A stretch of DNA of 64,000 bases. Source: a virus. A program made the translations under genes and the position numbers. Below, one piece after another: positions 16,688 to 41,019 of the stretch (its first letter is position 1; each line of letters starts with the position of its first letter). The stretch is taken from IMG/VR virus record IMGVR_UViG_3300045581_000900, positions 1-64,000 of that record; one strand, given 5' to 3'. A model generated the notes under the pieces. The model saw only the letters and a program-made list of their open reading frames with translations, searched no databases and was not told the origin of the DNA.

Positions 16688-17497
16688 TTAAAAGTTGTGC
16701 TGATATCTGGCGTCGAGCATAGTTTGAATTTTTGCGGCACGTTGGCTGACCGCCCCCGGGCTGATGTTTAATCGACGGGCTATGTCCTGCGTCGACGCTT
16801 TTCGGCGACCATTACGACCTAGCGTCAAGTCCATAATCAGCTTATCAGTCGGCGACAGATCGCCGTAAACGAAGTCGAGCCACGCGTCGGTATTTTTTGT
16901 GTAATTTGGCAGTGTGCTTGCCAGATCAGTATTCGCGGCGTCTTCGCTGTCGCCGGCCCGCAGTGCTGTCATACCCTCTGCGATAGGCTGGTTGAAGCCG
17001 CGAATCTTTTTAATGCGGCGGGTCGACAGTCCCGTGGCGTCGGCGATCTCGTCATCAGTCGGGTCGCGGCTGAGTGCGTCTCGTAGTTCGTTCTCGGCGG
17101 CCGACAGTCGCTGAAAATCGAGCCCCACCTGCTCGGGCAAGGAAATGATGTTTTGCTCTTTTGCCGCGAGTCGCCGCAGACTCTGCAATTGCGACAGCAA
17201 ATGTGTTTTTACATTTCCACGCTGCGGGTCGTAAGTCTGCAACGCTTTCAGGGCCATCAATTTAGCCTTGTTTTTAATTGTCGGGCTGGCGTTGGCTCCG
17301 GCATAGCTGCTGACGGCGGTGTCGACGATGGGCTGTATTGTCCCAATTAGCTGCGTGTTCAATTCGGGTGTCTGTTGTTTTTGCCACTGCGGGTAAATAG
17401 CGTCAAAATCAGGCGACGCCCCGTAAGTCGTCTGCCCGGAAAAGGGCGGTTTTACGTCGCCTAGAATTGACGGCATGCCGTTGTTATTTTTTGCCAT
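16688..17497 (-). CDS. Sigma-70 family RNA polymerase sigma factor (alternative, FliA/SigD/SigB-like size)
   Basis: 269 aa; region 2 ALKALQTYDPQRG, region 3 LSRDPTDDEIADATGLS, region 4 HTH LSPTDKLIMDLTLG...STQDIARRLNISPGAVSQ. Confidence 0.85.
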   Translation of the reverse strand: MAKNNNGMPSILGDVKPPFSGQTTYGASPDFDAIYPQWQKQQTPELNTQLIGTIQPIVDTAVSSYAGANASPTIKNKAKLMALKALQTYDPQRGNVKTHLLSQLQSLRRLAAKEQNIISLPEQVGLDFQRLSAAENELRDALSRDPTDDEIADATGLSTRRIKKIRGFNQPIAEGMTALRAGDSEDAANTDLASTLPNYTKNTDAWLDFVYGDLSPTDKLIMDLTLGRNGRRKASTQDIARRLNISPGAVSQRAAKIQTMLDARYQHNF

Positions 17498-17504
17498 AAG
17501 TCAC

Positions 17505-19433
17505 CTACGCTATTCCGCCAAAGTTTCCGGGATTAAACGCTGGAGCACCGGCGTCGGTCGGTGCGTCTGCCGCACCCAAGTCCCCTGCCATCGGCACCAG
17601 CGGTCCGCCCTTCCACGGCGAGCCGGGAAGTTCGTATTTATAGATCGGAGCGTATTCGCCTACATAATGTTTTTTACTTGTCGGATCGTTTACGTCGTTT
17701 TCTTTTTCTGTACGTAAATGACTCAACGCGAAAGAAGTACCTGCCGTGTGTTGTTCGGCGTTAATAGCAAACGACACCTGCACGACCGCCCCGTACATTG
17801 GCGGCCCTTCCGTGTTACCTATCCGTTCAACCGGCGGTAAAATTTTAATAATGCTGCCGGGGGCGATATCGAACCGGAGCTTTCCCGACAGTTCTCCGTA
17901 TCTCTGCCCGAGCGTCGCGGACTTGTACCAGTGACAAGCAAATCGGTCGTACACGTTTAAGTACTCGCCGTCGACGAAGTCGACTGTCTCGCGGTAGTGT
18001 GCTTCGACCTTACTGTGCGACTGCGGAGCCTCTGGGTTTTTTTCGCTGCCTTTTTGCGGGTCGAGCGGGCTGCGGCCTTCCGTGTTTATATGGTTTTCTC
18101 TTGGATACATTTGCGTGTAAACAGGGCTGGCCAACCATGCCGGCGGGTCGCGAACAAGGATGTTGCCCCAGTGGTCGTTGTAGTCGCCTTCTTTTTTGGG
18201 GTACTGGCCGGCGGGATAACAAAACCCGTGTTCCGGCGTCAATTTACCGCCGACCACAGCCCCGGAAGAATCACCTTGCGGCGACCAATAGATAACGATT
18301 GAACTAATCATATTGGCACAATTCGCATTAAAATTTGCGTAATTGTATTCGTCGCCGTGAATGGTGACGTGTGGCGTGCTTAAGCCCGGGAAGAACGGAA
18401 CGGCCTGTGCGTACTCAACGCTGGGCGAAATCGCAAACAGGAAGGAGGGTGCGAGGTCGCCAATTAGCTTACTCCAAATCGAGTTATAGCCCATGCCGTC
18501 AAGAATCATGCGGCACAGGCCTTCATGAGCCGAGAGGCTTAAATAAAGAAACGGGTCGCCACCCTCGAAGCCGGAAAGATTTAATGGCAGTTTGGCTTTA
18601 TATTTTGCGGGAGCTTTACCGGGTATACGCTCTAACGCTTTCCACGCAGCCCGGTTGTTGTAGCCGGGTTTTCCGAGTTCGTCCGCTGAAAGCCCGTCGC
18701 TACTTGGGCCGGTGTCAGTGCCGTTATCTGGCGGCGGCTGCTGGCATTGCACCGCGGGATGGGGCATGTTTGTGATACCCCTGAAAATCTTTTTGATCAC
18801 CTCTTCCCACAGGTCTTTTTCCATGTTGGCTTGCGTAACAATTACACCGCCATCAGGTGAGTCAGGGGCTTTGTTGTCAATCATCGGAACAGCCCGAGCA
18901 CCGGACGGCGATCGACCCGCCCCGCCGCCGTCGCCGCCGGTTAAGTCAGCAATAACGAGCGACGATGCAACCTGTGCCAGATCATGCGGCACGTTCTGCG
19001 ACCAGTCGCCGTTGAGCATCGACGAGCAGTTGAGGTCGTCGAGCCAGTGCACAAGATGGATCGTGTACGAGCAGTTGTTGTGAGCCCGCTGATAGCCGAT
19101 GCCAGCGTAGTAGCCGTCAAATACGATGTACTTGCCGTCCTTCATGCCGTTGATGATCGGGGCGTCCATGCGGCCCTCGGTCGATTTAATCGTCAGAAAA
19201 ACTGTGCAGCGGTCGCGGGGCTGCAGCTTGTCGATCATATCGTGGATCGTAGCCCGTTTTTCTGTCCGCACCTCGATACCGGTCGCAACGTCCAGCGTGC
19301 ATGTTGGGATAGCATTCAGGGCGAACGTGGCCGACATAGCCACGATGTCTTTAAACTCTGTTTCACCGCCCTTCCGGTGCTTGAACTTGGCGGTCAGTTC
19401 AAATTCTGTGCGAATAAAAGGCTCGTTAGACAT
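17505..19433 (-). CDS. Putative baseplate hub protein (gp27/gpD-like)
   Basis: 642 aa; position between tape measure and wedge genes; C-terminal GKLRFDIAPGSII...GAVVQVSFAI pattern. Confidence 0.55.
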   Translation of the reverse strand: MSNEPFIRTEFELTAKFKHRKGGETEFKDIVAMSATFALNAIPTCTLDVATGIEVRTEKRATIHDMIDKLQPRDRCTVFLTIKSTEGRMDAPIINGMKDGKYIVFDGYYAGIGYQRAHNNCSYTIHLVHWLDDLNCSSMLNGDWSQNVPHDLAQVASSLVIADLTGGDGGGAGRSPSGARAVPMIDNKAPDSPDGGVIVTQANMEKDLWEEVIKKIFRGITNMPHPAVQCQQPPPDNGTDTGPSSDGLSADELGKPGYNNRAAWKALERIPGKAPAKYKAKLPLNLSGFEGGDPFLYLSLSAHEGLCRMILDGMGYNSIWSKLIGDLAPSFLFAISPSVEYAQAVPFFPGLSTPHVTIHGDEYNYANFNANCANMISSIVIYWSPQGDSSGAVVGGKLTPEHGFCYPAGQYPKKEGDYNDHWGNILVRDPPAWLASPVYTQMYPRENHINTEGRSPLDPQKGSEKNPEAPQSHSKVEAHYRETVDFVDGEYLNVYDRFACHWYKSATLGQRYGELSGKLRFDIAPGSIIKILPPVERIGNTEGPPMYGAVVQVSFAINAEQHTAGTSFALSHLRTEKENDVNDPTSKKHYVGEYAPIYKYELPGSPWKGGPLVPMAGDLGAADAPTDAGAPAFNPGNFGGIA

Positions 19434-20364
19434 TTCGCCCTCGCAGTTCTTCGGTGCGGTAGATTAACGCTAACACCATACCGGAGAGTCTGTATGCAGG
19501 CAACGGATGATCGAACCACAGGTTCTTGAACGTGAGATACGGTTCCTTGTCTTCGACGCCGAAAATTTCGAGGTACACAGGTTCGCCAAGCATTTCCATC
19601 GACGGCATAACAGTTGTGATCACTGGGGCCGGGTTAACTTTAGTTTCAACCAGCCACTGAGCCACAAGTCCTTCTTGTCCAGCGGCAAGTGCCATTCTTT
19701 CGTTCGACAGCCGGGCCGCAGATGCCGTGTCATATGCTTCAACAACAATAAAATCGTTTATTTCCGTAAGCAGAGCACTGTATTCCGTTTGGTAGGCACT
19801 TGGGTTTAAACGTAGATTTAGTTCTGTGTCGGGGAGGACGACAATTGGCGGCGAACTTAGGTCGGCCACGGTGACAGTGAAACGCGAGTCTCTTTCTCCC
19901 TGATATCGAACTTCCATCTGCAATGATGTCTCGCCGTTTTCTGTCACGCGGCGAAGGCTGACCGTGTACAAGTTAGATGCCTTGCCTTTAGCGGTTAAAG
20001 CGTACAAATTGCCGGCGACATTCAATCGCCGCGGGCTGCCGTAAATCTGCGTAATAGACACCCGTTTTCCAGCCGGCTCAAAATATGGCCGTCCGACTCG
20101 CGGCCAGTACGTGACGCGGGGATCAAGCCGGTACACATACTCTGCTAATTCTGTCGCGTGAATATACGACAGCAATTCGTTGACGCGGAAGTTCAAAAAA
20201 TAATTGTCTGGATTTGTCCCGAACAAAAGCTGCCGCAGCGTGCTCAGTGTGCTCGGCAGCGTCACTGGCCGGAACGCGGCGGGGACATACTCGTAGCCGT
20301 AATCGCTGTAGTGCATGCGATCGCGGTTTTTATTGAGCAGCAATGTGCGGGCGTGATTGATCAT
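19426..20364 (-). CDS. Hypothetical tail/baseplate protein
   Basis: 312 aa; overlaps the downstream start. Confidence 0.6.
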   Translation of the reverse strand: MINHARTLLLNKNRDRMHYSDYGYEYVPAAFRPVTLPSTLSTLRQLLFGTNPDNYFLNFRVNELLSYIHATELAEYVYRLDPRVTYWPRVGRPYFEPAGKRVSITQIYGSPRRLNVAGNLYALTAKGKASNLYTVSLRRVTENGETSLQMEVRYQGERDSRFTVTVADLSSPPIVVLPDTELNLRLNPSAYQTEYSALLTEINDFIVVEAYDTASAARLSNERMALAAGQEGLVAQWLVETKVNPAPVITTVMPSMEMLGEPVYLEIFGVEDKEPYLTFKNLWFDHPLPAYRLSGMVLALIYRTEELRGRNV

Positions 20365-20367
20365 GGC

Positions 20368-20850
20368 TTATTCTTTTTTAGGCAGCACTTCCATTCGCAG
20401 CGTCCAATAACCGACAGGGCCTGTGTCGCTCTGATTCAAATCTATTTTTACGCCGGTCAAAAATCCGTGCAGTTCGATTGCTTTACCGGTCGGCGTCAGC
20501 AACACAACGTCTAATGATTTGCCGCCCCGAGCCGCTGTTTTGTTTTTGTTGTAGTAGTCGTAAATCGCAAATATGTTTGCCCCTTCTTTGGCTCCGTCGC
20601 ACGTTTTAAGAAAACCGACTCCGGTAATAGTTAACAAACCGACGCGGTCGCCAAAGGCGTAAAAATAGACAAAGTCGTTTACTGTGTGCAAAAATTGGTA
20701 GTTGCCTGACAACTCTAGCGTGACACCGGTAACAACAAATTCGTTTGTGAACAGTTGATAGTCGAGAGCCACCACTAAAAAATCGTTTTGAGAGCACTCT
20801 TTTCGAGAGACCTCAACCGCACCGGTACATGGCGTGAAAACCATCGGCAT
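20368..20850 (-). CDS. Putative tail tube initiator (tube-fold)
   Basis: 160 aa right after the tape measure gene; YFYAFGDRVG resembles the tube's YYVGDRRRG. Confidence 0.5.
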   Translation of the reverse strand: MPMVFTPCTGAVEVSRKECSQNDFLVVALDYQLFTNEFVVTGVTLELSGNYQFLHTVNDFVYFYAFGDRVGLLTITGVGFLKTCDGAKEGANIFAIYDYYNKNKTAARGGKSLDVVLLTPTGKAIELHGFLTGVKIDLNQSDTGPVGYWTLRMEVLPKKE

Positions 20851-20858
20851 ACGTCACC

Positions 20859-23800
20859 TCATGTCACTCGTTGCCCACTGGGCAGCCCGCCGCGGCCCAT
20901 GTGGCCGGTGCCGACAACTGGCACGCCGCCGCCCGGCGTAGCCACAGCTTTCTGGGCGGTTGCGTCGAGGATTGCCTCGTGCAGGCCCTCTAGCCGCAGC
21001 GAGCCGTTTAGCGTAATCGAACCGCCGTCTCCGCCGCCTTGCGACGCCGCCTGCCCGGTGTATTCTCCTCCGCGGGCGGAATGCTGCTCTGGGCTGTAAG
21101 AGACTGGTTGAATGTTTGCTGAGCCTAGGCTGCCGGCAAATGATTGCTGCACGTCGGCTGTTCTTTCTGGCGGCAGTCCGGCTGAAATTTTTTGTTCGAT
21201 TTCGGCTGCAACAAAACTTTGTTGCAGTCTGTTGCCGCTGGTAGCAGCGTAATCTTGCATCAAATCGTTAATGTCTGAGCGACCCCGCAGATGCGGCGGC
21301 ACGGCACCCGAATACGAACTCTTGCCTTTTCCGCTCATGTTGTGGCTAACGCCTGCGTCATCTCCCGGCGTGAGCACGCTGCGGTTTTTTGTGTTTAGAT
21401 GGTTGTCGCGTGTGTATTGCCCTTCGTCGGCAACTGGTTTTTCTCCGGGTTCGAGTCCGGCTTTTTGCTGGATTTCCGCGTCGTTCTTGGCGGCAATATC
21501 GGCTTTTTCTGCTTCTTTAATTGCAATTTCTTTTTTACGTGCGTCCATCTTTGCCAATTCGTAAGCCCGCGACTTAGGCGATAACGCGTCGCCGTGCCTG
21601 TCCACGCCCGCTTGAAAGTCGGCTAAATGTTTACGGAACGCTTTCGGGTCGAGCGGCGTGCCGCCGACACTGATATGCCCGTGATCGTTAGAAACCTTTC
21701 CGCTAGAATCTATGCCCGCATCTTCAGCCATCCGACGGGCAACGACGTTTTCTTGCAGCAACTCGTCCAATCCTTGTAGTTGTTCTCTCTCTTCTACGCC
21801 TGTTTTTGGGTCGTCTATCTGTTTACGAATCTGTTTACGTTTTTCGTAATAAAGGGCTTCCGCCTGTTCCGCAGGCGATAACGCTGCGTACATGGCCTGT
21901 CGTTTATTTTCTGCCGCTTCGTATTCTTTTTGTGCTAGTTCCTTTTGCGTTGGTTCGGTGCTCGTTGTTGCGGCAATAACCGCCTTTGCTTCTTCTTTTG
22001 AAACGCCGACCGTTTGTACAGCCGCCTCGTCAGTCTGCTGTCGAATATCAGCCGCCGTGGCCGAGTCTTTATCCGCGGTCTTTGTTTCTGGCAGTGGCTT
22101 GTCTGCTGTCTTGCCCGCCGTGCCCGCGGCCGCCGCTGCGGCCTGCTCCGCCCCGGCGTCGCGTTGCTTGATAAGCTCTTCTCGGCGAGCTTTGTCGGCC
22201 TCGGTCATCTGGCTCCAGTTAAGCCCGAAACCAAAGGCACTTTCTTTTTTATTGATCGCCGCGATCTCGGCGTCGATAGCTTCTTTGGTATCCGGCATAG
22301 GAGAGCCGGGCGTTTGAGCGACAGCACCACCGCCTGCCTTGGCTCCGTTGATATAGACGTTCTGTGCCGCGAGTTCGACCTTGTCGGCTTTCTGTTTGTT
22401 TTCGCCCGCCTGTGCTGCTTGCTGGTCTACAACTTTTCCGAGTTGTTGTTTTTCATCCGCACGGCCGACGCCGATAATATCTTCGGCCATTTGTTGTTTG
22501 AGAGATTTTTCATGGGGGCTAAGAGCTTTTCCTGCCTCAAAATCTTCTTTCTTCAGCCCGAGCGTTTCTAATGTTTTTGCGGTGGCCGCGTCGCCGTCGG
22601 CGTTGATTAGTTCCGTGAGCAACGCTTGATTGCCGGCTAACTCACCTGCTTTGCCGCCAGCGTCTTTGTACAGTCGCCCGATCGACCCGATTGCCGCATC
22701 TCGCATCTCTTTATTCGTGCCGTCGTGCTGCGAGCGGATTATGGTGTCGATATCTGATTGCACTTCGGCGTATGACCGCCCCGACGCGTGCGTGCCTTCA
22801 AGAGCATGACCTATAGACCGGGCCGCATTTGTTTTCAGCGTGCCCATTGAAATTGCTTGATTCCCGGTTTCTTTCGTTCGCTCGGTAAGGTATTCCTTGT
22901 CCGCCACCTGAGCGTACTTGCTGCTTTCGGCTAGCACTCTTTTCTGGTCTGCAATCGGAGTGAGGGCAGCTTCTTTTTCTGTGATGCCGAGTGCGTCGGC
23001 GTAAGCGGCAGTAGCAGCCTTTGCGTCCATCGCCGCTATTTTCGCGTCGCGTTCCTTTTTAAGTTTGGCGTCGTCTACGACCTCTACCTTGTCGTTCTCT
23101 TTGTAGCCGGCAAGTTTCTTAAGCTCATCTGTTTTTCCGGCTGCCGCAAGGTCGTCGATAGTTTTGTCTGTAACGGATACCGCATCTCGTCTCGCGTAGA
23201 GCGAGTGCATTCCAGCCCCCATCTCTCCGGCGTAACGCTTTAACAGTTCCTTATCCGCGACGAACGGCGACATTTCTTTAATGAAGTTCCCCGCGTCAAA
23301 TTTTTCACCGCGTTTTCCGATGTCCATAAAGTAGTCAGAAAAGCGACCCACAACCGTAGATTCGCTACCGGCCCCGACGAGCCGTTTTGTGGCATCTGCG
23401 TGAGCCCGTGACCGGGCCATTTCTTCCATGCCGGCTACGTCACCTTGATTGCCGTAAAACATGTTTAAATCGACGAGATTCTTGCCGTACGTTCGCTGGG
23501 CTACGCCGCCAACGTGCCCGATAAGTCGGTCAAGCCCGGCCCCGCTGATGTTGCCCTGCTTGTCCCGCCCAAAAGTTTGGTCGACAATTCGCCCGGCCAT
23601 TGACTGGGCGGTTTTCTCGTCCATGCCCTGTGTTTTTTGCAGGTGCTCCGCGAGTTTTTCGGGCATGTGTTTTTGTAAAAATTCAATTTGGTCTTTAACG
23701 CCCATGTTTGACGAATCGAGCACCATCTCGGAGAACGCGTTACCTACGTCAGCAATACCGGCCTGCCCTAGCTCTTGTCCAAGCTGTGTATTGCTGAGTG

Positions 23801-25895: not shown

Positions 25896-25900
25896 GTTAA

Positions 25901-26311
25901 TTACTGTCCCCCCTCTTTGTTAGCCCGCCAGACTTTATATTTTTCGATCATCTTGCGGCTTTCAGCGTCTATTTTACTGTTTTTGTCTTGCTTTTCGATC
26001 TCTTTCTCTTCTTCGGTTTTTTCTTTAACATTCCACGGGAAAATAAGCCCCTGTAATTCCTGCAGCGTCTCGCCGGCGTCTTTTTTGACGCTGGCAAAAC
26101 TTTCCTCGGTCAGCGAGCCGTGGGCCAGATAGGCACACCAATGGCGGTGCCTATGTTCCAGCACGTGCTGGTCTTCCCGCCGCTGAAGTTCCAGCAGCAG
26201 GAGCCGGTGCTTAATCCGCCACTTATTATCCGTGGGATCGGCTCGGGAGTAGTCAACTGCCCCCGATACTGCAGCCCGCACCATGTAGGCTGCTATTCGA
26301 TCCCGTTCCAA
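25901..26311 (-). CDS. Tail assembly chaperone, -1 frame extension (gpT-like)
   Basis: Overlaps the end of the upstream gene in the -1 frame, beginning exactly at a slippery heptamer. Confidence 0.75.
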   Translation of the reverse strand: MERDRIAAYMVRAAVSGAVDYSRADPTDNKWRIKHRLLLLELQRREDQHVLEHRHRHWCAYLAHGSLTEESFASVKKDAGETLQELQGLIFPWNVKEKTEEEKEIEKQDKNSKIDAESRKMIEKYKVWRANKEGGQ

Positions 26312-27294
26312 AAATTTGGCTCAAGAGCCATGGCTTCGAGAGCTTCGACCAGCCGCTGGAATTGTCGGAGGTGCGTCCCGACAAGCCGGCGAGTCGCCTC
26401 TTGAGCCATGTTTTTGTTGATTAATTCCAGTTGCTTCGGCAGCGGGGTGGCCAGCGGCTCGTCCTTGTTCGGCTCAAATGCCATCTCCTCCAACAGCGGG
26501 ATGATCATGAGAACCTTGCCGGATTTGTCGGCTACAGACTCAAGCGAGCACGCCAGCCGGTAGTCCATCATCTGAACGAACCACTCGGCCTCGGTTGCGA
26601 CCTTGTTATTCTGCTGGTCGAGTACAAGCTGACGATAAATCAGTTTGTTCTCTTCGGCCAGCAGGCTGCGGAATGTCACCACGATCCGCCCGCCAAAGAG
26701 TTCGTACTTCTTCTTGAACCGGACGCCCCCGAGCAGGGTCGCAAGGAAGTCTTCCTTCTCGCGATCAGTCGGCACGACATCAAACTTCTGCCGCATGTCC
26801 CAGCCGCATCGTGGGCAGAACACGACCAACGCCGGGTCGACCGTCTCTTTCGGCTTTTCTTCGGTCGGTTCTTTTGCAGGCTCAGAAGCCGGCTTTTCTT
26901 CGACGGCCGCTGGTTCAGTGGCTACTGGTTCGGTTGTTTCGCCGTTCTCGTCGCGGTCGTCAACGATCATTGGCTCGGATTCAAGCTGTTTGTATACCTC
27001 GGCGACGTCCGGGGCCATGTTCTTCGTCTGCTCTTCGAGTTCTTCGGCCCGCTTCTTCTTGCGACCAAGGTCTCGGGCTTCACGGAGCATGTCTTTGATT
27101 TGCTTGATCTGTTCTTCGCTCATGACATCTTGGTCAATCAGGACGTCGGAGCGTTTCGAGATCGGCAGCGTCTCTTTCATCTTGATCATCAACTGGCCAA
27201 GGTCTGCAGGGATGGCGTCGCCCTCCTTCCACCCGAACTGCCCGAGCGTGGCTTTTGTGAAATCCGAGACGTAGACGTTTTCAACCAGTTCCAT
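26293..27294 (-). CDS. Tail assembly chaperone (gpG-like) with CPRCG motif
   Basis: 333 aa, upstream of the tape measure gene; slippery site 6 codons before the stop. Confidence 0.7.
   Translation of the reverse strand: MELVENVYVSDFTKATLGQFGWKEGDAIPADLGQLMIKMKETLPISKRSDVLIDQDVMSEEQIKQIKDMLREARDLGRKKKRAEELEEQTKNMAPDVAEVYKQLESEPMIVDDRDENGETTEPVATEPAAVEEKPASEPAKEPTEEKPKETVDPALVVFCPRCGWDMRQKFDVVPTDREKEDFLATLLGGVRFKKKYELFGGRIVVTFRSLLAEENKLIYRQLVLDQQNNKVATEAEWFVQMMDYRLACSLESVADKSGKVLMIIPLLEEMAFEPNKDEPLATPLPKQLELINKNMAQEATRRLVGTHLRQFQRLVEALEAMALEPNFWNGIE
26311..26317 (-). other. Programmed -1 ribosomal frameshift site A-AAT-TTT
   Basis: Zero frame reads CCA AAT TTT TGG (X XXY YYZ); -1 slip gives AAA TTT TTG GAA CGG, in frame with 25901..26311. 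Confidence 0.8.
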
Positions 27295-27306
27295 GTTTTA
27301 ACCTCA

Positions 27307-30222: not shown

Positions 30223-30271
30223 ATGGTGTTTTTACGGGCGTAAAGCCCCGGGCCATAGGCCCATATACCTT

Positions 30272-30304
30272 AAACGGCGGCTGCGGAAACCGCAACCGCC
30301 GTTT
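30272..30304 (-). terminator. Hairpin / probable intrinsic terminator after the tube gene
   Basis: AAACGGCGGTTGCGG-TTT-CCGCAGCCGCCGTTT; short U tract. Confidence 0.6.
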
Positions 30305-30335
30305 GTCGGTATAGGATGGTAATTAACCAGCTAAA

Positions 30336-30797: not shown

Positions 30798-30827
30798 AGT
30801 GTTAACTCCTTAGAACTCTAATGTGTG

Positions 30828-33800: not shown

Positions 33801-34364
33801 CGTATTGGGCTGGTTGTCGTCGTCGGCTTCGGCCGGCTTGATCAGCGACGGCACGAGGTCCGAGGCGAAACCGACCACTTCGGTCCACAGTTCGACTTCG
33901 AGGCAGTCGCCGTCACGGTCGACAACCGTGCGGAGATATACAACGTCACCGGCCTTCACGTCGCGGTCGAGGAAGTCGCTGCTACGCGGGTAGGCCGAGG
34001 TATTGGACTTGAAAGAAAGGTCGTCGGACTGAATCCAATTGAACTTGCCCTCAACCGTAGTGATACGGGTGTAGGTGCTCTGCAGGTCGTGCTCGAAATA
34101 CTTGAGCAGGGCGTCGTCCATATAGACCTTGGCGTAAGCAAGGTCGACGATCGAACCCGGACGACGCTGCGGCCAGCCATAGCAGACGTCGTTCAGACGG
34201 TCGTACTGGCCGAGCAGAATCGTCTTCTTCTCGTCGCGATCGCTATAGCGGTGCAGGATAGCGTGGGCACCGGCGATATGAGCACGCAGCGGTTCCGTGA
34301 TTTCGGTCGGAACGATGCGGAACTCTTGGAAGACTAATACTTGTGGTTTTACGTAACTAGACAT
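30828..34364 (-). CDS. Tail sheath protein with inserted surface domains
   Basis: 1178 aa; YVKPQVLVFQE N-terminus; C-terminal sheath core (LAAALAGLVSG...QPLTN...RHALTT...RRNVDSMS...PAPLNNIELHL). Confidence 0.88.
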   Translation of the reverse strand: MSSYVKPQVLVFQEFRIVPTEITEPLRAHIAGAHAILHRYSDRDEKKTILLGQYDRLNDVCYGWPQRRPGSIVDLAYAKVYMDDALLKYFEHDLQSTYTRITTVEGKFNWIQSDDLSFKSNTSAYPRSSDFLDRDVKAGDVVYLRTVVDRDGDCLEVELWTEVVGFASDLVPSLIKPAEADDDNQPNTAYYVDEPDADNNYLQVAGRVNCIKLVEVDGSDYSGIQSGDVEEEYTIQVIKSTISGCNAARLRVRSASSRDNVEEVQPADFGEWTNIGTRGLRVKFDLTDVEGCLEAAAANEVVYDNFVTGQKWVVNVKQEFNATEVDSAADGQFEVQPDGDIAGAYNGAKNDVYIVEVTKGGTFDAVEDGDLVGFPEITVRTVKGLDFSGPTEVVENGGEVGIGTNGVKVVIKAPGKVEAIDLDNGGSTYESAPTVVLSAPDDPTGVQATATCTINQAGSVNSITITNPGSGYYNPPSVTFEGGEGTGAVAQAFIDAKLRKGDKFYVAVVSSKAGPVRKLILRDDLPSEMRDTYIRASTVKTPVRVVADTNITLSGLQNIDGVMVESGNRVLVVNQDEETENGVYVAAEGAWTRATDADTTQELVKNIYFGVTAGVTYEGSGWVLTNSGSVIPGTTPIRFQRDDEAIDERYVPLDLKLFIKDNIEISRVRPEADQLTNYWFEDTQVCVQEGITAYHPEWTSAGAEQPLPVEKGKVYAEYREFLAELADEVNSISDVADLDDIAGQLHPDNPLKWGVYKALSNSNGTVVKYTAVAHPVEYHPENYRVTGPDLDSWVQVLERIKGRDDMYNLIPLTYDRLVQNLWAAHVGAESNEIANNWKAAFFSLKAEPKQLVVGQNALIGGVLGNVMEDEMLATLKDDPNATGSQFTLLQVPTGTNFASGYFITNDVRPGDIVRYNFSVDQFGEEQYEEYVVDQVLSENSLLLYTGADAAVTVPQRFEIWHNRNRNEVAEDLAQQAGSLSNRRICAVWPDQVGEAGITQPGYYLAAALAGLVSGVVPHQPLTNVEVAGFDDFTRSYKYFNETQLNRMAEAGVWIVTEDRDGTPHTRHALTTDNLDLNRREEMIRRNVDSMSYLFLRRLRPFIGRTNVQPGMLRRLKFEVETIINFLANNGNTEELGSQLISGEIRKLQVHPLLKDRIEIVLDLVVPAPLNNIELHLVV

Positions 34365-34367
34365 ACG

Positions 34368-34383
34368 AAGGCCTCCATGCCTC
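34368..34383 (-). promoter_or_regulatory. CsrA/RsmA-type hairpin over the sheath RBS
   Basis: GAGGC-ATGGAG-GCCTT. Confidence 0.55.
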
Positions 34384-34459
34384 AGTTATTTGTGTGCGGG
34401 GTCAGTGCGTTCGAGTAGTATACACAACCACTCGTGCAACAAAAAAACACCTCGTTAAT

Positions 34460-35170
34460 TTAACCTGACAACAAATCTGATGCCTTGAAGACAATCCGCT
34501 TAAGACGCGGTGCGAGGGGCTGAAGCGACCAAGCTTCTTCGGCCACATACGCGACGGTGACGGGGACGGCATATCCCTGCGTCGCCTCTTGTACTTCTCC
34601 AACACCTCCGACCTCAGACACATAGAACTTGAAGAAGTTCATCTGCTCCCTGATCATTGGCGAGAAAAGGATTAAAAACTTAACAACCTCCGTTGCTAAA
34701 AATTCTGTTTCGGCTCCGTTCTGCGACAGGCAAAAAAGTGTATGGCTGCCCTCCCAGAACCCCGAGTAACTAACTTCTCCAGTATAGTAGTTCGAAACCG
34801 CTCTGTCACCAATTACTTTAGAATTCCACTGCCAACTGTTTCTTTTAATGAGCACAGCCGGCCGCTTGTCCGCTGTATTCGGTGCCCAGCGTGTAATACT
34901 TTCTATCAAAATGCCGCCCGGATTCAAACCACTATCTGACTCCCGCCATCCCCCGATCTCTTTTACGTGCCGGCGGACTTTGGGGTCTTCAATATTTTGT
35001 GGGTCCGAAAAGTGACCAATTAATAGTTGCCGCAAAAAGCCGGTCATTACATGGGGCCGCATGCCGTAAGAGCAGAGCGAGCTTACCTTTTCGACGCGGT
35101 TTTCTGTGGTACTGCCGTCTGGAAATTCGCCCTCCAGATGATCGTCATTGGGATTCGGGCAATTCGTCAT
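34460..35170 (-). CDS. Putative tail terminator/completion protein
   Basis: 236 aa immediately upstream of the sheath; KRPAVLIKR motif. Confidence 0.55.
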   Translation of the reverse strand: MTNCPNPNDDHLEGEFPDGSTTENRVEKVSSLCSYGMRPHVMTGFLRQLLIGHFSDPQNIEDPKVRRHVKEIGGWRESDSGLNPGGILIESITRWAPNTADKRPAVLIKRNSWQWNSKVIGDRAVSNYYTGEVSYSGFWEGSHTLFCLSQNGAETEFLATEVVKFLILFSPMIREQMNFFKFYVSEVGGVGEVQEATQGYAVPVTVAYVAEEAWSLQPLAPRLKRIVFKASDLLSG

Positions 35171-35321
35171 CTGTCTGGTCCTCTGTTTCCGGCCAAAATT
35201 TTACGCCGGCTTTTAACGGGTTTTTCTTGTCCGGCTTAAATAAACTGATTTTCGGCAACATTTCGATCTTCTTGCCGTACAGCGATATTTTCTTTCCGGG
35301 AAATTGCGGTGCCGGTGTCAT
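35145..35321 (-). CDS. Small hypothetical protein (58 aa, below the ORF-track cut-off)
   Basis: ATGA overlap with the upstream stop; MTPAPQFPGKKISLYGKK...DDELPESQ fills the gap. Confidence 0.55.
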   Translation of the reverse strand: MTPAPQFPGKKISLYGKKIEMLPKISLFKPDKKNPLKAGVKFWPETEDQTDDELPESQ

Positions 35322-36628
35322 ATCCGCCAGAACTCCTCGTCTGGGTCGCCGGCAGGCTTTACGTCGTAAACTACGCCGCTTTCTGGGGTACTAAGAATTT
35401 TATCGTCTTCTGTCTTGAAGAATGACGGGTCACCTTCGGCGTCCGTCTCGCCGAGCGGGAATTGCGGCACATATGTCGGCACTAAGTCTTCTTCTGGCAC
35501 GGTTACAGTCACGGATTTGGTGTCCGGCCCATATTCCCCCGCCTTTTCAAACAGAATAACGTAGTCGCCGGGATCGAGTTTGATAGATCGGGTCCAGCGG
35601 CCGTTCACGCGGGTCGTCGTCTTCGCGACGGCCAAATTACGGTTAACGTTTACGCCGTTTGCGTCAAAGACCGCCTTCCGAAAAATATACACGTCTGCTC
35701 CCACAACACCGCAGCCGTCGGTGAGTGTGTAGGCCAGTTCGTCTAAACCGCCGTAGTCTTGGTCGACCGGTATGTCGCCGCAGCCAGCCATCGGAAGCGT
35801 GGGCCCGGTTCTGACCGACGGCTCGCCACCGATCTCTACTGCATAAATACTGTTGCTGAACGGCATCAGGCCCATACGCACCTGATAGATGACGGGCACG
35901 CCGCGGAGGGCCGCAGCGACCTGAATGCTCTCAACCACCCAGCGTTCGTCCGACGAGCCGTTCACCCAAATGTCATCTTTATTTAATCCGGGGAAGCCAA
36001 TGACTCTGGCTTCGACATACGGGTTTTCGCGGGTAGTGCCTTTCGGCTCTCCGACATCGCTCTGCTCGTTTTGCGGCGACAGGTCCCAGCATTGCATCGG
36101 CTGGGCAGGGTGATATCCCACCTCGAAACCCGTGCCATTACAGACCGGGCAGTTGGCGTCAGTGACTTCGCTCGACATTTCGTCGCGGCAGCGGGGGCAT
36201 GGAACGCCGTACCGCATTGGTTTGATTAAATAGCCGGGTATCGAGACCAGCCGATGCCGCAGTTGTTCTTTGCGGATAATTTCGCGGGACAGCACCCAGT
36301 CGCGTTCTGTTAACTCGCCGAAGACGTTGGCGGCCTGTGAGATGTATACATTCTGCGGCGTGGTGAGCTTGACGCGATAATGCGTCATTAACGTGTAGCC
36401 GGCCTCACGCCACGCCGGGTCTAAAGCGAAATATCCATTCGTGACAGGCTGGCCGACGTCGACCCAGTCAGTCGCGTCCCGAAGCCCCGTCCGGCCAAAT
36501 TGAAGCTGGAAAACGTAGGGGCCGGGCTCTTTAAACAGTTTCTCTAACTGCCACCAGACGCGGGAAACGCCGCGTACCATGTGGTCTACCGATACACGAC
36601 GAAATGGGAAAATACGTGCTTGGCTCAT
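35318..36628 (-). CDS. Putative neck / head-closure protein with Zn-finger
   Basis: 436 aa; CPRC...CPVCNGTGF; position between adaptor and tail terminator. Confidence 0.55.
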   Translation of the reverse strand: MSQARIFPFRRVSVDHMVRGVSRVWWQLEKLFKEPGPYVFQLQFGRTGLRDATDWVDVGQPVTNGYFALDPAWREAGYTLMTHYRVKLTTPQNVYISQAANVFGELTERDWVLSREIIRKEQLRHRLVSIPGYLIKPMRYGVPCPRCRDEMSSEVTDANCPVCNGTGFEVGYHPAQPMQCWDLSPQNEQSDVGEPKGTTRENPYVEARVIGFPGLNKDDIWVNGSSDERWVVESIQVAAALRGVPVIYQVRMGLMPFSNSIYAVEIGGEPSVRTGPTLPMAGCGDIPVDQDYGGLDELAYTLTDGCGVVGADVYIFRKAVFDANGVNVNRNLAVAKTTTRVNGRWTRSIKLDPGDYVILFEKAGEYGPDTKSVTVTVPEEDLVPTYVPQFPLGETDAEGDPSFFKTEDDKILSTPESGVVYDVKPAGDPDEEFWRI

Positions 36629-36644
36629 GGCTTGATTATAGCGG

Positions 36645-36665
36645 GCGGCTGATAGCTAAAAAAAA
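36645..36665. repeat. 21 bp direct repeat, copy 1 (GCGGCTGATAGCTAAAAAAAA)
   Basis: Identical to 40268..40288; partial copy ATAGCTAAAAAAA at 37149..37161. Confidence 0.85.
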
Positions 36666-36697
36666 AACGCTTACGCGTGCGGAGCCGTCGCCTCCGC
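36658..36697 (-). terminator. Probable terminator of the last island cassette
   Basis: GCGGAG/CTCCGC stem and a small ACGC/GCGT stem followed by 10 T on the minus strand. Confidence 0.5.
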
Positions 36698-36717
36698 TGC
36701 CTACAAATTGTCAATGC

Positions 36718-37014
36718 TTAGAACCACCGGTTCAGGCAGTTCTCCAGCATTTTCGCGATTTCCGTGCCGTGGATCACACGTTCCCACGCGATGCCGTATT
36801 CGTGCATGTCGCCGCGAAGGTGTGCCGACTCGGCAATCGTCTCTTCGCACCGCACGCACGTACGAACACAATCCAGCGTCTCGGTGAAGATTCGCTTGAC
36901 TGTTTCGCTGGGGCCGAAATTGCGATGGCACTCCATTGCGTGCGTCTCCATCGCAAAGAGGTCGTTGGCGAAACGCTCTTCAGCCGACCGCTGAGTCTGG
37001 GTCATTGTCGTCAT
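36718..37014 (-). CDS. Hypothetical protein (98 aa), island cassette 3
   Basis: Start moved to ATG 37014 (MTTMTQ), preceded by AAGGAGG; has its own promoter and terminator. Confidence 0.7.
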   Translation of the reverse strand: MTTMTQTQRSAEERFANDLFAMETHAMECHRNFGPSETVKRIFTETLDCVRTCVRCEETIAESAHLRGDMHEYGIAWERVIHGTEIAKMLENCLNRWF

Positions 37015-37110
37015 TATTGCCCTCCTTAAGGCAAAGTCTTTTACCCAAAGACTCTGGGGAGTACTGCTAGCCGACGATACATATCGCCGGAATGCTAGGT
37101 TCCTCATATG

Positions 37111-37138
37111 ATATACCCTGTTTTTGTCGGTTATTTAG
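37111..37138 (-). promoter_or_regulatory. Putative phage promoter CTAAATA-N14-GGTATAT
   Basis: One of three copies with identical 14 nt spacing, each upstream of an island gene. Confidence 0.75.
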
Positions 37139-37154
37139 AGCCGCTCGAATAGCT

Positions 37155-37183
37155 AAAAAAAGCCCCCAATGGTCTGGGGGCTT
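37155..37183 (-). terminator. Intrinsic terminator
   Basis: AAGCCCCCA/TGGGGGCTT stem running into T7. Confidence 0.8.
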
Positions 37184-37189
37184 GAGTGA

Positions 37190-37770
37190 AATGTGGGCCG
37201 GTCGGGAAGGCTAGCTTCTTCCCGACCGGCCATCCCCCGTTAACACCTGATTGTCACACACAATCAGTTCACTGTGTTACGGGCTCGTTGTTTACCGGCC
37301 GTGACGGCAACACCACAACGTCGGTCGCCCTAGGGCTGTGGACAGGGGGTACAACGAGAAAACATGCTCGCACAGGATTGGGCCATGCGAGCGTGGCGTA
37401 AATTTAGGCGGCACCCAGATTTACAGTCTCCGAACAATCCCATCAGAGTTTCGGCAACCTACGATCTGGGCAGAAAACAGTTTGTTACTTTCAAAGAACT
37501 TACCGGCGTTTCGGTTTCCCGACGTCCCGGTATTCGGACTCGATTTCACAATAAGGGTGCTGCTGCCAACCACCCCGAGGCTGCCTGTGCCGACAAGACA
37601 CAGGCTTTTTGTCCAAGGGCTTCACCTACGAAAGCCTTTGTTCCGTTCGGACCAGTACCGCCTAAAGCGACGAGCCCCCAGAGCGACGACGGAACAAGCG
37701 TCGCTCCAAGGGCGTATTAAACGTATTCATAGTTAGGGAAAGGGCATCTTCGACCTCCTTTCAGGAGCCG
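37190..37770 (-). ncRNA. Candidate large structured non-coding RNA (~580 nt), family unknown
   Basis: No minus-strand ORF of 60 aa or more; at least 10 helices including a perfect 14 bp stem (37196-37231), a 12 bp long-range stem (37403-37414 with 37655-37666) and a GAAA tetraloop; ends at a terminator. Confidence 0.6.
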
Positions 37771-37776
37771 CCTACG

Positions 37777-39306
37777 TCATTTCATCTTCAGGGCCAAGTC
37801 AAAGCCCCTGAGCATCCGAGACTGGTCAACGCAACCAATCGCCATGCTCAGTTTTTCCATCGCTTCCGGTCTCCAATTTGGAAGCAGATTGGGTACGGTC
37901 GGCTCGGGTCTTCCACTGGATGTCGCCCAGTTATGAAGCCAGAGCACTCGGGTTACAGACCGTAGTTCTGCGATCTCCCCGTAACGGTCGACCGCGTGGT
38001 GGTCGCCAAGCATGACGACAACACGAACCCTGTAACTACTCTCGCCGCGGCACACTTCCTCAAAAAGCCGTTCGGCCTCTCGGGGGCTTGTGGCCGCGGG
38101 CCTCCCGTTAAACCACGGAATGTACTCTTCGCTGGAGTCCACGCCGCCGTTAAAGTGGGGAAGCACCAGCACGTCGGAGCCTGCGACTCCGGCGTAGCCC
38201 GCCGCGTTGGCAAGGTCGCAGGCTGGCTGGGCCTGCTCCGCACAACTCGGCGAGATGTCGGGAAGAAAGAGGACCACCGGGCGGCCGGCGACCGTATCTT
38301 CCTTGAGTGCGTTGGGGAGCGGACGGCGGACAACCATCCGTTTAACCAACTTTGATGCACTCAAGACAGGTACGGGTCCCGTGGTTTCACCCACGGTCCC
38401 GCCATGCTCAACGAGCCGATTGATCAGTTCGGCCATCTGATTCCTCAACTTCTGGGAAACGTTTTGCAGGCGGCCAAGGCCCCGCGAAACTTGTTTCCGA
38501 GCGGTGAGGGAGACGCCGGCTGCTTGGGCTTTCGAGTTATACGAAAGCTTTTTGCGGGCCTGTCCCAATTTACGTTTTGCCGCTTTAACCGCGGCGTCTG
38601 TCCCCGGCTTTTTGCCGTTTTTGGCCGCGGCTTCCAGAGCGTCTTTCAACTCTCTCTTGGCCGCCTCAAGGGCTTTCTGCTGGGGGCTCGGCTGCGGTTT
38701 GGGCGGCGGGGTCGGAGCCGGCGGCGGGGGTGTAGGTTCAGCGTTAGCTTCGCCGTCACCGCCAGACGCAGGACCGGTCGTCTGCGTTTGGCTGGACGGT
38801 TGCGGCTGCCCCTGACCCGACTGCCCCTGCCCCTGCTGACCTTGGCCCTGTTGGCTTTGGCCAGACTGCCCTTGCCCCGGCTGGGCTTGGCTCTGTTGGC
38901 TTTGGCCAGACTGCCCTTGCCCCGGCTGGGCTTGGCTCTGTTGCCCCTGACCCTGCTGGTTCTGGCCCGGCTGGCCCTGCGGCGGTTGCTGCTTGGCCCG
39001 CTCCTGCTCGATAACTTCGAGCAGGTCCGCGTTCGGCCCGTATTCGCGGGCCCAGCGGTCAGCGAGGCGGCGAACATCCGGGACGATGGTGCCAGCCTTT
39101 TTGCACTCGTAGCACTTGCAGGCGTTTAACAGGCCGCCGTCCCGCAAGACGTTAGCCCGACGCCACCGGTTTACGCCGGTGACGAAAGCCCCAAGCCTCC
39201 CGAGAGCGGATTCGACGTCGCTGTCGTACACGCCGCCGAAAGCAATGCCGCGTTCAGCGGCAGAGAAACACTTCTGCAGTTGCCGCAATGTGAGCGACAT
39301 TGCCAA
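37777..39306 (-). CDS. vWA (MIDAS) domain protein with Gln/Gly/Pro low-complexity linker; probable MoxR partner
   Basis: 509 aa; VVLFLPDISPS (DxSxS) and VVVMLGD; adjacent to the AAA ATPase; AAGGAG RBS. Confidence 0.7.
   Translation of the reverse strand: MAMSLTLRQLQKCFSAAERGIAFGGVYDSDVESALGRLGAFVTGVNRWRRANVLRDGGLLNACKCYECKKAGTIVPDVRRLADRWAREYGPNADLLEVIEQERAKQQPPQGQPGQNQQGQGQQSQAQPGQGQSGQSQQSQAQPGQGQSGQSQQGQGQQGQGQSGQGQPQPSSQTQTTGPASGGDGEANAEPTPPPPAPTPPPKPQPSPQQKALEAAKRELKDALEAAAKNGKKPGTDAAVKAAKRKLGQARKKLSYNSKAQAAGVSLTARKQVSRGLGRLQNVSQKLRNQMAELINRLVEHGGTVGETTGPVPVLSASKLVKRMVVRRPLPNALKEDTVAGRPVVLFLPDISPSCAEQAQPACDLANAAGYAGVAGSDVLVLPHFNGGVDSSEEYIPWFNGRPAATSPREAERLFEEVCRGESSYRVRVVVMLGDHHAVDRYGEIAELRSVTRVLWLHNWATSSGRPEPTVPNLLPNWRPEAMEKLSMAIGCVDQSRMLRGFDLALKMK
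38848..38943. repeat. Exact 45 bp tandem duplication (QQSQAQPGQGQSGQS x2)
   Basis: 38848-38892 is identical to 38893-38937. Confidence 0.9.
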
Positions 39307-39324
39307 CTCCTTTCTCGTGGCGTT

Positions 39325-39364
39325 AATAAAAGGGGCCAGATTCCCGCCACAGAATCTGGCCCCT
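39325..39364 (-). terminator. Terminator-like hairpin between the ATPase and vWA genes
   Basis: 13 bp perfect stem AGGGGCCAGATTC/GAATCTGGCCCCT, then TTTATT. Confidence 0.7.
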
Positions 39365-39371
39365 GTTTAAC

Positions 39372-40196
39372 TCATCGGCGTTTGAACTCGCCGTAGAGGA
39401 CGGCCCCGGGAGACTTAACCTCCCGCTCGATGGCCTTTCGGTCCTTATCGGCCTTCACGAGAAAGGCGTCGATCAGGGCTTCGGTGTCCTCGACCGAAGC
39501 GACCAAGTCACGAGCTTTCAGGAGTTCACGCAACTCCTGCAGGCTCGGCTTGGACTCGCCCTTGGTTCGCACGGCGTTAGCCATGCGAACGATGAGGCGA
39601 CACGCCTGCGATGGAGCCCCCGTGCTCTTGCGAAGCACGTCGGTTTCGATGTTCTCCGGCAAGAACTCCATCGTTACCCGGAAGCAGCGACGCTTCACAG
39701 CCTCCGGGATATCGCCCTCCTCGTTTGCCGTGAGGACGACGAACATCCTCTTGAGGTCTGCCTGATGCATGTGATGCCGAGCGTCCGGCACCCGACCATG
39801 CTGCAGGAAATCGAGGATCAGCGGATAGAACCTCGATCCGGCTTTTTCCACCTCGTCGAGGGTCACAACTACGTCGTGGTGCTTCGTGGCCTTAACAGCC
39901 CGGAGAAGCTGACCGTCCATGTAGGCCTCGTCGGCGTGATTAACACCAACGGCGACCTTCCCGATATCCACGCCCTGATTGACCTCTTCATTTGTCAACC
40001 AAGGATGGCAGGGAATGAAATAGTGCATCGCCCCCCTGCCGCGGGCGAAGCAATCGGCGAAGAAGGTCTTGCCGGTGCCGGGCGAACCGACGAGCAGTAC
40101 CGCTCGCATCGTCGCCGTGATCGACGCCAGCCACTTAGCCGCCAAACCCTCACCACGGCGAGCGTGGTAGTTGGGGAGCAATGTTTCAACAGACAT
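39372..40196 (-). CDS. MoxR-like AAA+ ATPase
   Basis: 274 aa; Walker A GSPGTGKT, Walker B VVVTLDEVEK, sensor I LTAN, Arg finger KRRC. Confidence 0.88.
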   Translation of the reverse strand: MSVETLLPNYHARRGEGLAAKWLASITATMRAVLLVGSPGTGKTFFADCFARGRGAMHYFIPCHPWLTNEEVNQGVDIGKVAVGVNHADEAYMDGQLLRAVKATKHHDVVVTLDEVEKAGSRFYPLILDFLQHGRVPDARHHMHQADLKRMFVVLTANEEGDIPEAVKRRCFRVTMEFLPENIETDVLRKSTGAPSQACRLIVRMANAVRTKGESKPSLQELRELLKARDLVASVEDTEALIDAFLVKADKDRKAIEREVKSPGAVLYGEFKRR

Positions 40197-40237
40197 GCCA
40201 GCCTCCTATGTAGGAATAGAAAATCGTGCCACAACAA

Positions 40238-40265
40238 ATATGCCGCAATTTGGCCGATTATTTAG
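40238..40265 (-). promoter_or_regulatory. Putative phage promoter CTAAATA-N14-GGCATAT
   Basis: Second copy, upstream of the ATPase. Confidence 0.75.
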
Positions 40266-40267
40266 CC

Positions 40268-40288
40268 GCGGCTGATAGCTAAAAAAAA
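40268..40288. repeat. 21 bp direct repeat, copy 2
   Basis: Identical to 36645..36665. Confidence 0.85.
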
Positions 40289-40319
40289 CGTCACCCGGGC
40301 CGAAGCCGGAGTGACGTTT
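40281..40319 (-). terminator. Intrinsic terminator with C(UUCG)G loop
   Basis: AAACGTCAC...GGC-TTCG-GCC...GTGACG followed by T8. Confidence 0.85.
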
Positions 40320-40355
40320 AAACGTTAAAACGTTTTGCAACTGCTCGGGCGGGCC

Positions 40356-40895
40356 TCAGTTTGCACTGGGCTCCCACTTCCGATGGACCGTTCCGACAGC
40401 CGGCTTGGGCTCGTCGGCCTTCTGCTTCAACTGCTCGGCGAAGGCTTTCACCTTTGCCTTTGCAGCCTCTGCCGCAGCCTCTTCTTCGGCCCGCTCTTTT
40501 TCCATCTTCACGCCGTCTTCGAAAATCTGCTCGGCGATGTACTGTGCGTCGACGGTTTCCATGAAGCTGCTGCAGACAGACTCAAGGAAGTTCATCGAGG
40601 TCGCCATCTCGTCCGCAGCCTTCTTGTGTTCCTCGTCGCCCGTCTCGGCAGCGATTCGCATGAGGGCCACGATCTCGTTCATCGTCGACGCCAGCGAATT
40701 GCCAACGATGCTGGCGATCCAGATAGTCATCGCACCGATCGCTCCGTTGCGGTGCTCCTCGTCCCACTCGGTCTTACCGAGCCGGTCGAGGCCCTTGCGG
40801 CTCGCCGCGTACGGGTGTGCGGACCACGGCAGGTCCGCCGCCTTCTTCCGAAAGTTTTCCAGCGTTTGCTGCGTGGCTGTATTGACCGATTTCAT
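40356..40895 (-). CDS. Hypothetical helical protein (179 aa), island cassette 1
   Basis: Start moved to ATG 40895 (MKSVNTA) with AGGAG RBS; has its own promoter and terminator. Confidence 0.7.
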   Translation of the reverse strand: MKSVNTATQQTLENFRKKAADLPWSAHPYAASRKGLDRLGKTEWDEEHRNGAIGAMTIWIASIVGNSLASTMNEIVALMRIAAETGDEEHKKAADEMATSMNFLESVCSSFMETVDAQYIAEQIFEDGVKMEKERAEEEAAAEAAKAKVKAFAEQLKQKADEPKPAVGTVHRKWEPSAN

Positions 40896-40976
40896 GCCAA
40901 CTCCTACAGGTGGTGGAAATGGCCGCCGCAGACAAACGCCGCGGGGCGGTGCCGAACAGATAAACGGCACTACCTA

Positions 40977-41004
40977 ATATGCCAGCCTTCAGCCCCCTAT
41001 TTAG
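40977..41004 (-). promoter_or_regulatory. Putative phage promoter CTAAATA-N14-GGCATAT
   Basis: Third copy. Confidence 0.75.
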
Positions 41005-41019
41005 GTGTGTCAAAACCTA

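Follow-up and report, generated by a model that had tools for sequence, protein, structure and literature searches.

The first 64 kb of IMG/VR virus record IMGVR_UViG_3300045581_000900 (64,000 nucleotides, referred to as the window, of a 111,939-base record rated 55% complete) come from an uncultured phage of about 200 kb, and nearly all of the genes are carried on the minus strand. The span described here begins with the gene of a sigma factor (16688-17497), runs through a long structural operon and reaches a set of small transcription units at 36.7-41.0 kb that are preceded by copies of a two-block motif, CTAAATA-N14-GGYATAT; the two chains of an RNA polymerase core are encoded further along (Table 1). 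A sequence-only reading of this DNA had proposed that sigma, polymerase and motif form a complete phage transcription circuit. In this study, we find that the motif very probably marks a genuine promoter class, intrinsic to the phage, which we call class A, and we weigh the evidence that the phage sigma, acting on the phage core, is its reader.

The record (G0, also G000) was compared with its relatives G1 (G001; 197 kb, 96% complete), G2, G003-G007 and G009, and with an AT-rich outlier, G008, using gene calls scored by codon usage. When the region was compared at the nucleotide level with 50,697 phage records, no match was obtained, and identity with the 'Moraphages' (PMC12619734) was ruled out, these being a different lineage that has no polymerase.

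A predicted promoter class

The three exact copies of the motif that had been reported for the window, at 37111-37138, 40238-40265 and 40977-41004, are confirmed on the minus (coding) strand, and no copy arises in 100 dinucleotide-preserving shuffles of the window. In the whole record the motif occurs seven times, always on the minus strand: six of the copies are exact, and the one at 107825-107852 has a single mismatch. A weight matrix built from 16 sites of G0, G1 and G2 identifies 7, 5 and 5 sites in the three genomes, with scores of 27-45 and none between 14 and 26; the matrix was scored against the genomes that supplied its sites, so it is the empty gap in the scores that is informative and not their height. 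The seven G0 sites score 29-43, and the opposite strand of that record yields no site; its shuffles score 13.8 at most, those of the three-genome scan 19 at most. The coding strands of G0-G2 hold no further match, and the opposite strand holds one weak, intragenic match (14.3, in G2). All class-A sites in these genomes are intergenic and on the coding strand, intergenic DNA making up about 7.6% of the G0 record.

The aligned sites define an extended consensus of about 36 bp, g-CTAAAT-w-N5-C-n-AAA-N4-GGCATAT-Y-N3-T-R. Read as hexamers, it consists of CTAAAT and CATATY separated by 17 bp, with G at -14/-13, that is, the canonical spacing and two-block layout of the sigma-70 family. The T located five bases past GGCATAT is invariant and is followed by a purine in 15 of the 16 seed sites; from the sequence, this T-purine pair, 5-6 nt after GGCATAT, is likely to represent positions -1/+1. 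Counted from the proposed +1, the first 45 nt form more stable folds than their shuffled versions (mean z of -1.24, compared with -0.09 for random genome windows), and many of the leaders show a 5' hairpin that begins within the first few bases of the proposed +1.

The promoters of sigma-28 (SigD, FliA) follow the pattern TAAA-N15-GCCGATAA, with a conserved CGA. Class A resembles them in the (C)TAAA -35 block, in the ATA core of the -10 block and in a group-3-like geometry, and the earlier observation that CTAAA-N16-GGCATAT has the spacing of the Bacillus subtilis SigD consensus is correct. The likeness ends at the -10 block, which is GGCATAT and has the CGA in 0 of the 17 sites of G0-G2. As for the host's main promoter type, CTAAAT agrees with TTGACA at two of six positions, and a scan with the host sigma-70 consensus does not list the class-A sites.

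Conservation across the clade

Exact or near-exact class-A sites are present on the strand of the sigma gene in nine of nine clade records, in which the sigma is 38-95% identical and GC content ranges from 49 to 59%, a range suggesting that the hosts probably differ; reversed-pattern controls give about 0 matches. The motif is found in G1 and G2 (sigma 63-69% identical), in G003, G004, G005 and G009, and in G006 (42%, GC 49%), with a weaker site in G007 (38%). In G008 and in the cultured Salmonella phage Arash, discussed below, it matches only at the level of the controls. We also looked for covariation between sigma and promoter. Conservation of the region 4.2 helix extends down to 38% identity, and so does that of the motif, which leaves co-conservation and not covariation to be assessed in this material; such co-conservation agrees with the sigma reading the motif, without proving it.

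Genes headed by the promoter

Each of the copies in the window does lie upstream of an island gene, as had been proposed, at 41-96 nt from a start preceded by a Shine-Dalgarno sequence, and most class-A sites stand 41-140 nt ahead of a gene start, usually directly past a terminator. The units they head are short, terminator-bounded and composed of small orphan or accessory genes. When 15 promoter-proximal proteins were compared with Pfam and PHROG, the matches were limited to the AAA_5 ATPase of the island and three PHROGs of unknown function, and no structural PHROG was among them. The genome-wide scan suggested by the sequence-only reading was expected to mark non-structural or early genes: non-structural accessory genes are indeed marked, but with 5-7 sites per genome the motif does not cover all early genes.

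The three sites of the window fall inside a 4.3-kb strain-specific block between conserved structural genes. No homolog of its four genes is found in G1 and G2, whereas the genes flanking it are 62-70% identical to their G1 and G2 orthologs, which are adjacent in G2 and are split in G1 by another cassette with the same promoter. A 203-aa (amino acid) gene family is found downstream of a class-A promoter in G0, G1 and G2, though at another locus in G1. No class-A site precedes the sigma or the polymerase genes, and in six relatives the 10 kb on either side of the sigma gene are free of such sites.

Table 1. Genes and signals of the window, with positions counted from its first base (ORF, open reading frame)
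Feature	Position	Strand	Description
Phage sigma factor, 269 aa	16688..17497	-	sigma2-sigma3-sigma4 domains; embedded in long structural operon
Sheath gene, 1178 aa	30828-34364	-	PHROG sheath families
Conserved gene, 420 aa	35318..36580	-	downstream island flank; starts sheath operon
Terminator + TTAGCTAT tail	36652..36690	-	closes island; TATAAT box follows, before 420-aa gene
Island gene, 98 aa	36718..37014	-	orphan; single-gene unit, then terminator; no G1/G2 homolog
Class-A promoter 1 (predicted)	37105..37139	-	t-CTAAATA-N14-GGTATAT-c-ata-T-G; candidate start G at 37105; score 36.0; heads 98-aa ORF
Hairpin + T-run + TTAGCTAT tail	37149..37183	-	ends 10 nt upstream of promoter 1; composite terminator-promoter
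Island gene, 507-509 aa	37777..39306	-	function unassigned; shares ATPase unit; no family above threshold; no G1/G2 homolog
Island gene, 274 aa	39372..40196	-	AAA_5 (MoxR-like) ATPase; PF07728, E 1.5e-12; no G1/G2 homolog
Class-A promoter 2 (predicted)	40232..40266	-	g-CTAAATA-N14-GGCATAT-t-tgt-T-G; candidate start G at 40232; score 39.8; heads AAA_5 ATPase and 507-aa genes
Hairpin + T-run + TTAGCTAT tail	40275..40316	-	ends 9 nt upstream of promoter 2
Island gene, 179 aa	40356..40895	-	orphan; first island unit; no Pfam/PHROG match; no G1/G2 homolog
Class-A promoter 3 (predicted)	40971..41005	-	c-CTAAATA-N14-GGCATAT-t-agg-T-A; candidate start A at 40971; score 28.9; heads 179-aa ORF
Hairpin	41020..41039	-	upstream of promoter 3; closes 329-aa structural gene unit
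Structural-module gene, 329 aa	41061..42050	-	upstream island flank; 64-70% identical orthologs in G1, G2
RNA polymerase chain 2, 657 aa	53430..55403	-	beta-prime C-half; Rpb1_5, E 1e-22; rpoC positions 548-1048
RNA polymerase chain 1, 1478 aa	56367..60803	-	complete beta fused to beta-prime N-half; Rpb2_6 (E 3.5e-53), Rpb1_2; NCBIfam beta/beta-prime, E 5e-111

The phage sigma factor

The 269-aa sigma matches the Pfam families Sigma70_r3 (PF04539; E 3e-9, 37.1 bits against a cut-off of 25.3) and Sigma70_r4 (PF04545; E 3e-6, 27.1 bits against 24.1), with no match to Pfam region 2, and the SigBFG profile aligns its residues 46-259 to positions 4-220 of 227. An AlphaFold model of the protein (mean confidence score, pLDDT, of 68.5, with 75-87 in the helical domains) matches the full-length SigA, RpoS, SigB and SigD chains in alignments of about 245-270 columns, at a Foldseek probability of 1.0. 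The fold alignment over the full length of the chain, together with the Pfam matches, therefore indicates that regions 2, 3 and 4, all of which had been assigned to this protein beforehand, are present.

The NCBIfam sigma subfamilies match weakly and almost equally, far under their cut-offs, with the RpoD-type profile highest at 31.9 bits, SigB/SigF/SigG (TIGR02980) at 22.8 bits against a cut-off of 234.35, and FliA/WhiG (TIGR02479) at 24.1 against 189.6; the last figure excludes membership of the FliA/SigD (sigma-28) group. Such weak and roughly equal matches are those of a sigma-70-family protein of its own lineage. The gene is a core gene of a large uncultured clade, with 361 close relatives on contigs of up to 213 kb, and a profile search collects 491 clusters at 50% identity (E<=1e-30). 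In the region 4.2 helix (A-V-S-Q-R-x-x-K-I-Q), residues S251, Q252, R253, I257 and Q258 hardly vary even in relatives with an overall identity of only 35%, and the region 2 sequence T-H-L-x-x-x-L-Q-x-L-R-R is largely kept, with H99 and L100 in about 80% of the sequences and L107 and R109 invariant.

The N-terminus carries a motif of its own. Residues 7-21 (window 17435-17479) read G-M-P-S-I-L-G-D-V-x-P-P-F-S-G, a sequence that does not vary in the close clade and persists in looser form (M-P/R-S-x-L/F) at 35-43% identity; this segment precedes sigma2, has low model confidence and may be a packaging or core-docking tag.

The phage core polymerase and its cultured relatives

That the phage has its own polymerase beside its own sigma is borne out by the Pfam and NCBIfam matches of the two chains, which make the core a bacterial-type one. 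One polymerase set and one sigma are encoded in each of G0, G1 and G2, with a few weaker region-4-like helix-turn-helix matches in G1, and the alpha-like RNA_pol_L domain is found in none of the three, as opposed to 14 of 14 control genomes. The beta-prime clamp helices, on which sigma region 2 docks, are present with many basic positions changed. In the beta flap region (window 57624-59126), the flap-tip helix, the dock of sigma region 4, is replaced by a shorter glycine-rich stretch, VYGKVHRGRGGAFA. Read from the sequence, these diverged docking surfaces hint at a private, co-evolved interface between sigma and core.

By tblastn, the same beta fusion is found in Salmonella phage Arash (OQ632216.1) and in Vibrio phages D69, D148 and D181, at 32% identity over 96% coverage. 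Arash shares the whole arrangement, namely a beta/beta-prime N-half fusion, a separate C-half and a sigma homolog (gp10, 27% identity by tblastn) within the structural module, and the next-but-two gene downstream of the sigma gene here (14037-15686) matches Arash gp13. In purified Arash virions, gp10 was detected with 467 spectra at 100% coverage, gp206 (beta) with 3516 spectra, the most-detected protein, and gp216 (beta-prime) with 1210 spectra (PMC10585845). The likeness thus comprises the fusion layout, the sigma homolog and the conserved neighbour of the sigma gene, with the Arash proteins seen in virions; in contrast, Arash is very distant, lacks CTAAAT-N15-GGCATAT, and its report lists proteins only.

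Terminators and other intergenic signals

Two further types of signal occur between the genes. The first is a hairpin followed by a T-run ending in TTAGCTAT(C), seen in the window at 36652-36659, 37149-37156 and 40275-40282 and elsewhere in the record (G000) at 92667-92674, 93365-93372, 94588-94595 and 98423-98430. The most repeated 12-mer of the record is TTTTTTTAGCTAT, with eight copies, all on the coding strand. Of the seven class-A sites of G0, three have the end of the TTAGCTAT-tailed T-run 9-10 nt ahead of CTAAAT, and in a fourth the distance is 23 nt. This signal also appears in G1 and G2, and not clearly in G006 and G007, and in several places it stands 16-25 nt ahead of a start codon with no class-A promoter. 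Because copies stand directly before genes without the promoter too, we rejected the idea that it acts as an upstream element of class A. Two candidate roles are the tail of a clade-specific terminator and a second promoter type with a -10 block only.

The second type is a TGTATACT box after a T-rich stretch, located on the minus strand at 34417-34422 and 42071-42076 of the window, the first upstream of the sheath gene and the other upstream of the 329-aa gene. The boxes hold the same positions in G2, and G1 has TACAAT before its sheath gene, with no such box evident upstream of its 329-aa ortholog. By their sequence, these TATACT/TACAAT boxes are best described as a sigma-70-like -10 class of the structural operons, distinct from class A.

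A separate repeat is confined to G1 in the comparison with G0. The palindrome TCATTGATATCAATGA (L016-L025), or a one-base variant, stands just upstream of three G1 class-A promoters; its core TTGATATCAA occurs 21 times in that genome, about half of them intergenic, and is absent from G0. Being a palindrome dispersed throughout G1, TTGATATCAA was rejected as a promoter part.

Discussion

We propose that the sigma, encoded within the late structural operon, would be produced late in infection and enter the virion together with the two-chain bacterial-type core, and that the packaged enzyme, once injected, would start transcription at class-A promoters early in the next cell. The location of the sigma gene among late proteins, with no class-A site nearby, fits late making and use at the next infection. 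In this regard, the structural operons, with their TATACT/TACAAT boxes, would probably be read by another form of the enzyme, possibly that of the host, as in coliphage N4. We assign a probability of about 0.5 to this account as a whole, that is, to a phage-intrinsic class-A promoter with the phage sigma as its reader, a packaged core and early use. Its parts are not equally firm. Sequence evidence makes it probable that the phage's own 269-aa sigma reads the class-A promoters; that it does so together with the phage core, the holoenzyme being delivered in the virion and serving early accessory units, has a chance that we would place just short of even, by analogy with the virion proteomics of a cultured relative of 27-32% identity.

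Several observations count against this account. The authors of the Arash study suggest a function in early transcription and allow for carry-over of abundant enzymes into the virions (PMC10585845), and Arash is itself a distant guide, with 27% identity in the sigma, 32% in beta and no class-A motif. The sites are predicted promoters, supported throughout the clade by sequence comparison. Five sites in a 96%-complete genome of 197 kb are few for a whole early class, and the early timing is deduced from just two things, the type of the genes and the position of the sigma gene. Region 2.3 of the sigma lacks the aromatic residues with which cellular sigmas melt the -10 element, having THLLSQLQS instead, so the way in which it would read a -10 block cannot be argued from sigma-70. 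Finally, the T-run with TTAGCTAT and the TATACT box coexist with class A, and either is conceivably the target of the sigma.

The best-surviving of the other explanations is that the phage sigma redirects the host core to CTAAAT-N15-GGCATAT, an appropriation for which SPO1 gp28 and T4 gp55 are precedents, while the phage polymerase uses other signals or another factor. The complete sigma2-sigma3-sigma4 architecture resembles that of cellular sigmas and the best profile matches are of the RpoD type, in keeping with reviews in which phage-encoded sigmas act on the host core (PMC7824862, PMC13282480). We nevertheless regard it as unlikely: the Arash sigma is found in virions alongside the phage core, the late operon is an odd location for a factor that redirects the host enzyme during infection, and the phage core retains the sigma-docking clamp helices, though diverged, and has no other recognisable specificity subunit, with one sigma per genome at the sensitivity reached and the weaker helix-turn-helix matches of G1 aside.

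Rather less probable still is that the sigma reads one of the other signals (TATACT/TACAAT or the T-run with TTAGCTAT) and that class A is read by the phage core with an unrecognised factor. There are three conserved intergenic signal types, nothing physical ties the sigma to class A, and the phiKZ and AR9 polymerases use specificity subunits diverged beyond recognition. Against these points, class A alone has two blocks at a sigma-type spacing and alone persists in relatives whose sigma is as little as 38-42% identical, conservation of TTAGCTAT does not extend to G006 and G007, and the sigma has none of the region 2.3 aromatics that would be expected for a TATAAT-like box.

The alternative raised by the sequence-only reading, a host sigma-28 (FliA-like) factor for which the phage would have copied the geometry of flagellar promoters, fares worse and seems to us very improbable. 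The CTAAA -35 block and the 16-nt spacing equal those of the SigD/sigma-28 consensus, but the CGA at the heart of GCCGATAA has no counterpart in GGCATAT, phages of 49-59% GC, probably of different hosts, share an identical motif, and dependence on a motility sigma would limit infection to flagellated cells in their motile phase. Hardly credible, lastly, is the view that the 36-bp element serves chiefly for recombination or regulator binding at the borders of mobile cassettes and not as a promoter: it does flank strain-specific cassettes and move with genes, like the PeSL elements of T4-like phages, but every copy faces a downstream gene, past a terminator and 41-140 nt before most starts, and it has the two-block layout, the conserved T-purine at start-site distance and the 5' leader hairpins. 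As PeSLs are themselves promoters, the two roles are not mutually exclusive.

The proposed phage sigma-core holoenzyme has partial counterparts among known systems. Phage N4 has a single-subunit enzyme that uses hairpin promoters, and its late genes are transcribed by the host sigma-70 enzyme, much as we propose for the TATACT-type boxes. What would be shared with phiKZ, AR9 and N4 is a packaged, injected phage polymerase reading phage-specific early promoters; what differs is a core near to bacterial beta/beta-prime, a sigma-70-family factor and a two-block promoter, the cores of phiKZ and AR9 being split into 4-5 chains with no recognisable sigma (PMC7824862, PMC13282480). The island resembles the PeSL cassettes of T4-like phages (PMC2839356, PMC4122927), where a hairpin terminator and an early-type promoter bound variable orphan cassettes between conserved blocks. 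Here too there is a composite of terminator and promoter, and the island is absent from G2 and replaced in G1; the difference is that the PeSL promoter is a host sigma-70 early promoter, whereas the present one appears phage-specific and does not fit the host sigma-70 type. With SPO1 gp28, T4 gp55 and the sigmas of group-2 jumbo phages, the phage has in common a sigma-70-family protein and a distinctive phage promoter consensus. Those phages have no core of their own, while here sigma and core are encoded in one genome and their homologs occur together in the virion of a relative.

Reviews describe large phages as having either a multisubunit polymerase with no sigma or a sigma with no polymerase (PMC7824862, PMC13282480). 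The present family encodes both, and our search of the literature found no paper on a sigma-dependent phage-encoded core or its promoter. The sharply defined, family-wide promoter would be the missing third part of such a system, and a direct test would need three proteins and a DNA element of 36 bp. Should the sigma indeed act with the phage core, no simpler sigma-dependent holoenzyme of the bacterial type would be known; it would reveal how such a factor binds to a core that has a replaced flap tip and lacks an alpha-like subunit, and it would be a candidate orthogonal expression system. More tentatively, and with odds somewhat below even, one may see here a minimal orthogonal machine carried in the virion, made of a two-chain core lacking alpha and omega, a sigma-70-family factor and a portable promoter of about 36 bp that tags mobile accessory cassettes, so that acquired genes would be expressed independently of the host. 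The layout of the cassettes also suggests how these phages bring newly acquired genes under their own programme.

Further observations

The unit started at 40265 contains, past its 507-aa gene and before the terminator at 37160-37183, about 580 nt (window 37190-37770) with no convincing open reading frame. In G1, the first gene after one class-A promoter (95871-96422; L020:15871-16422) encodes a protein with a weak sigma-region-4-like helix-turn-helix (E 0.03), possibly an early regulator. Genes for five tRNAs (Lys, Leu, Val, Glu and Asp) lie among small orphans past the promoter at 107825-107852 (G000, about 101.8-107 kb; L036:14879-14953 and downstream), from which they may be co-transcribed.

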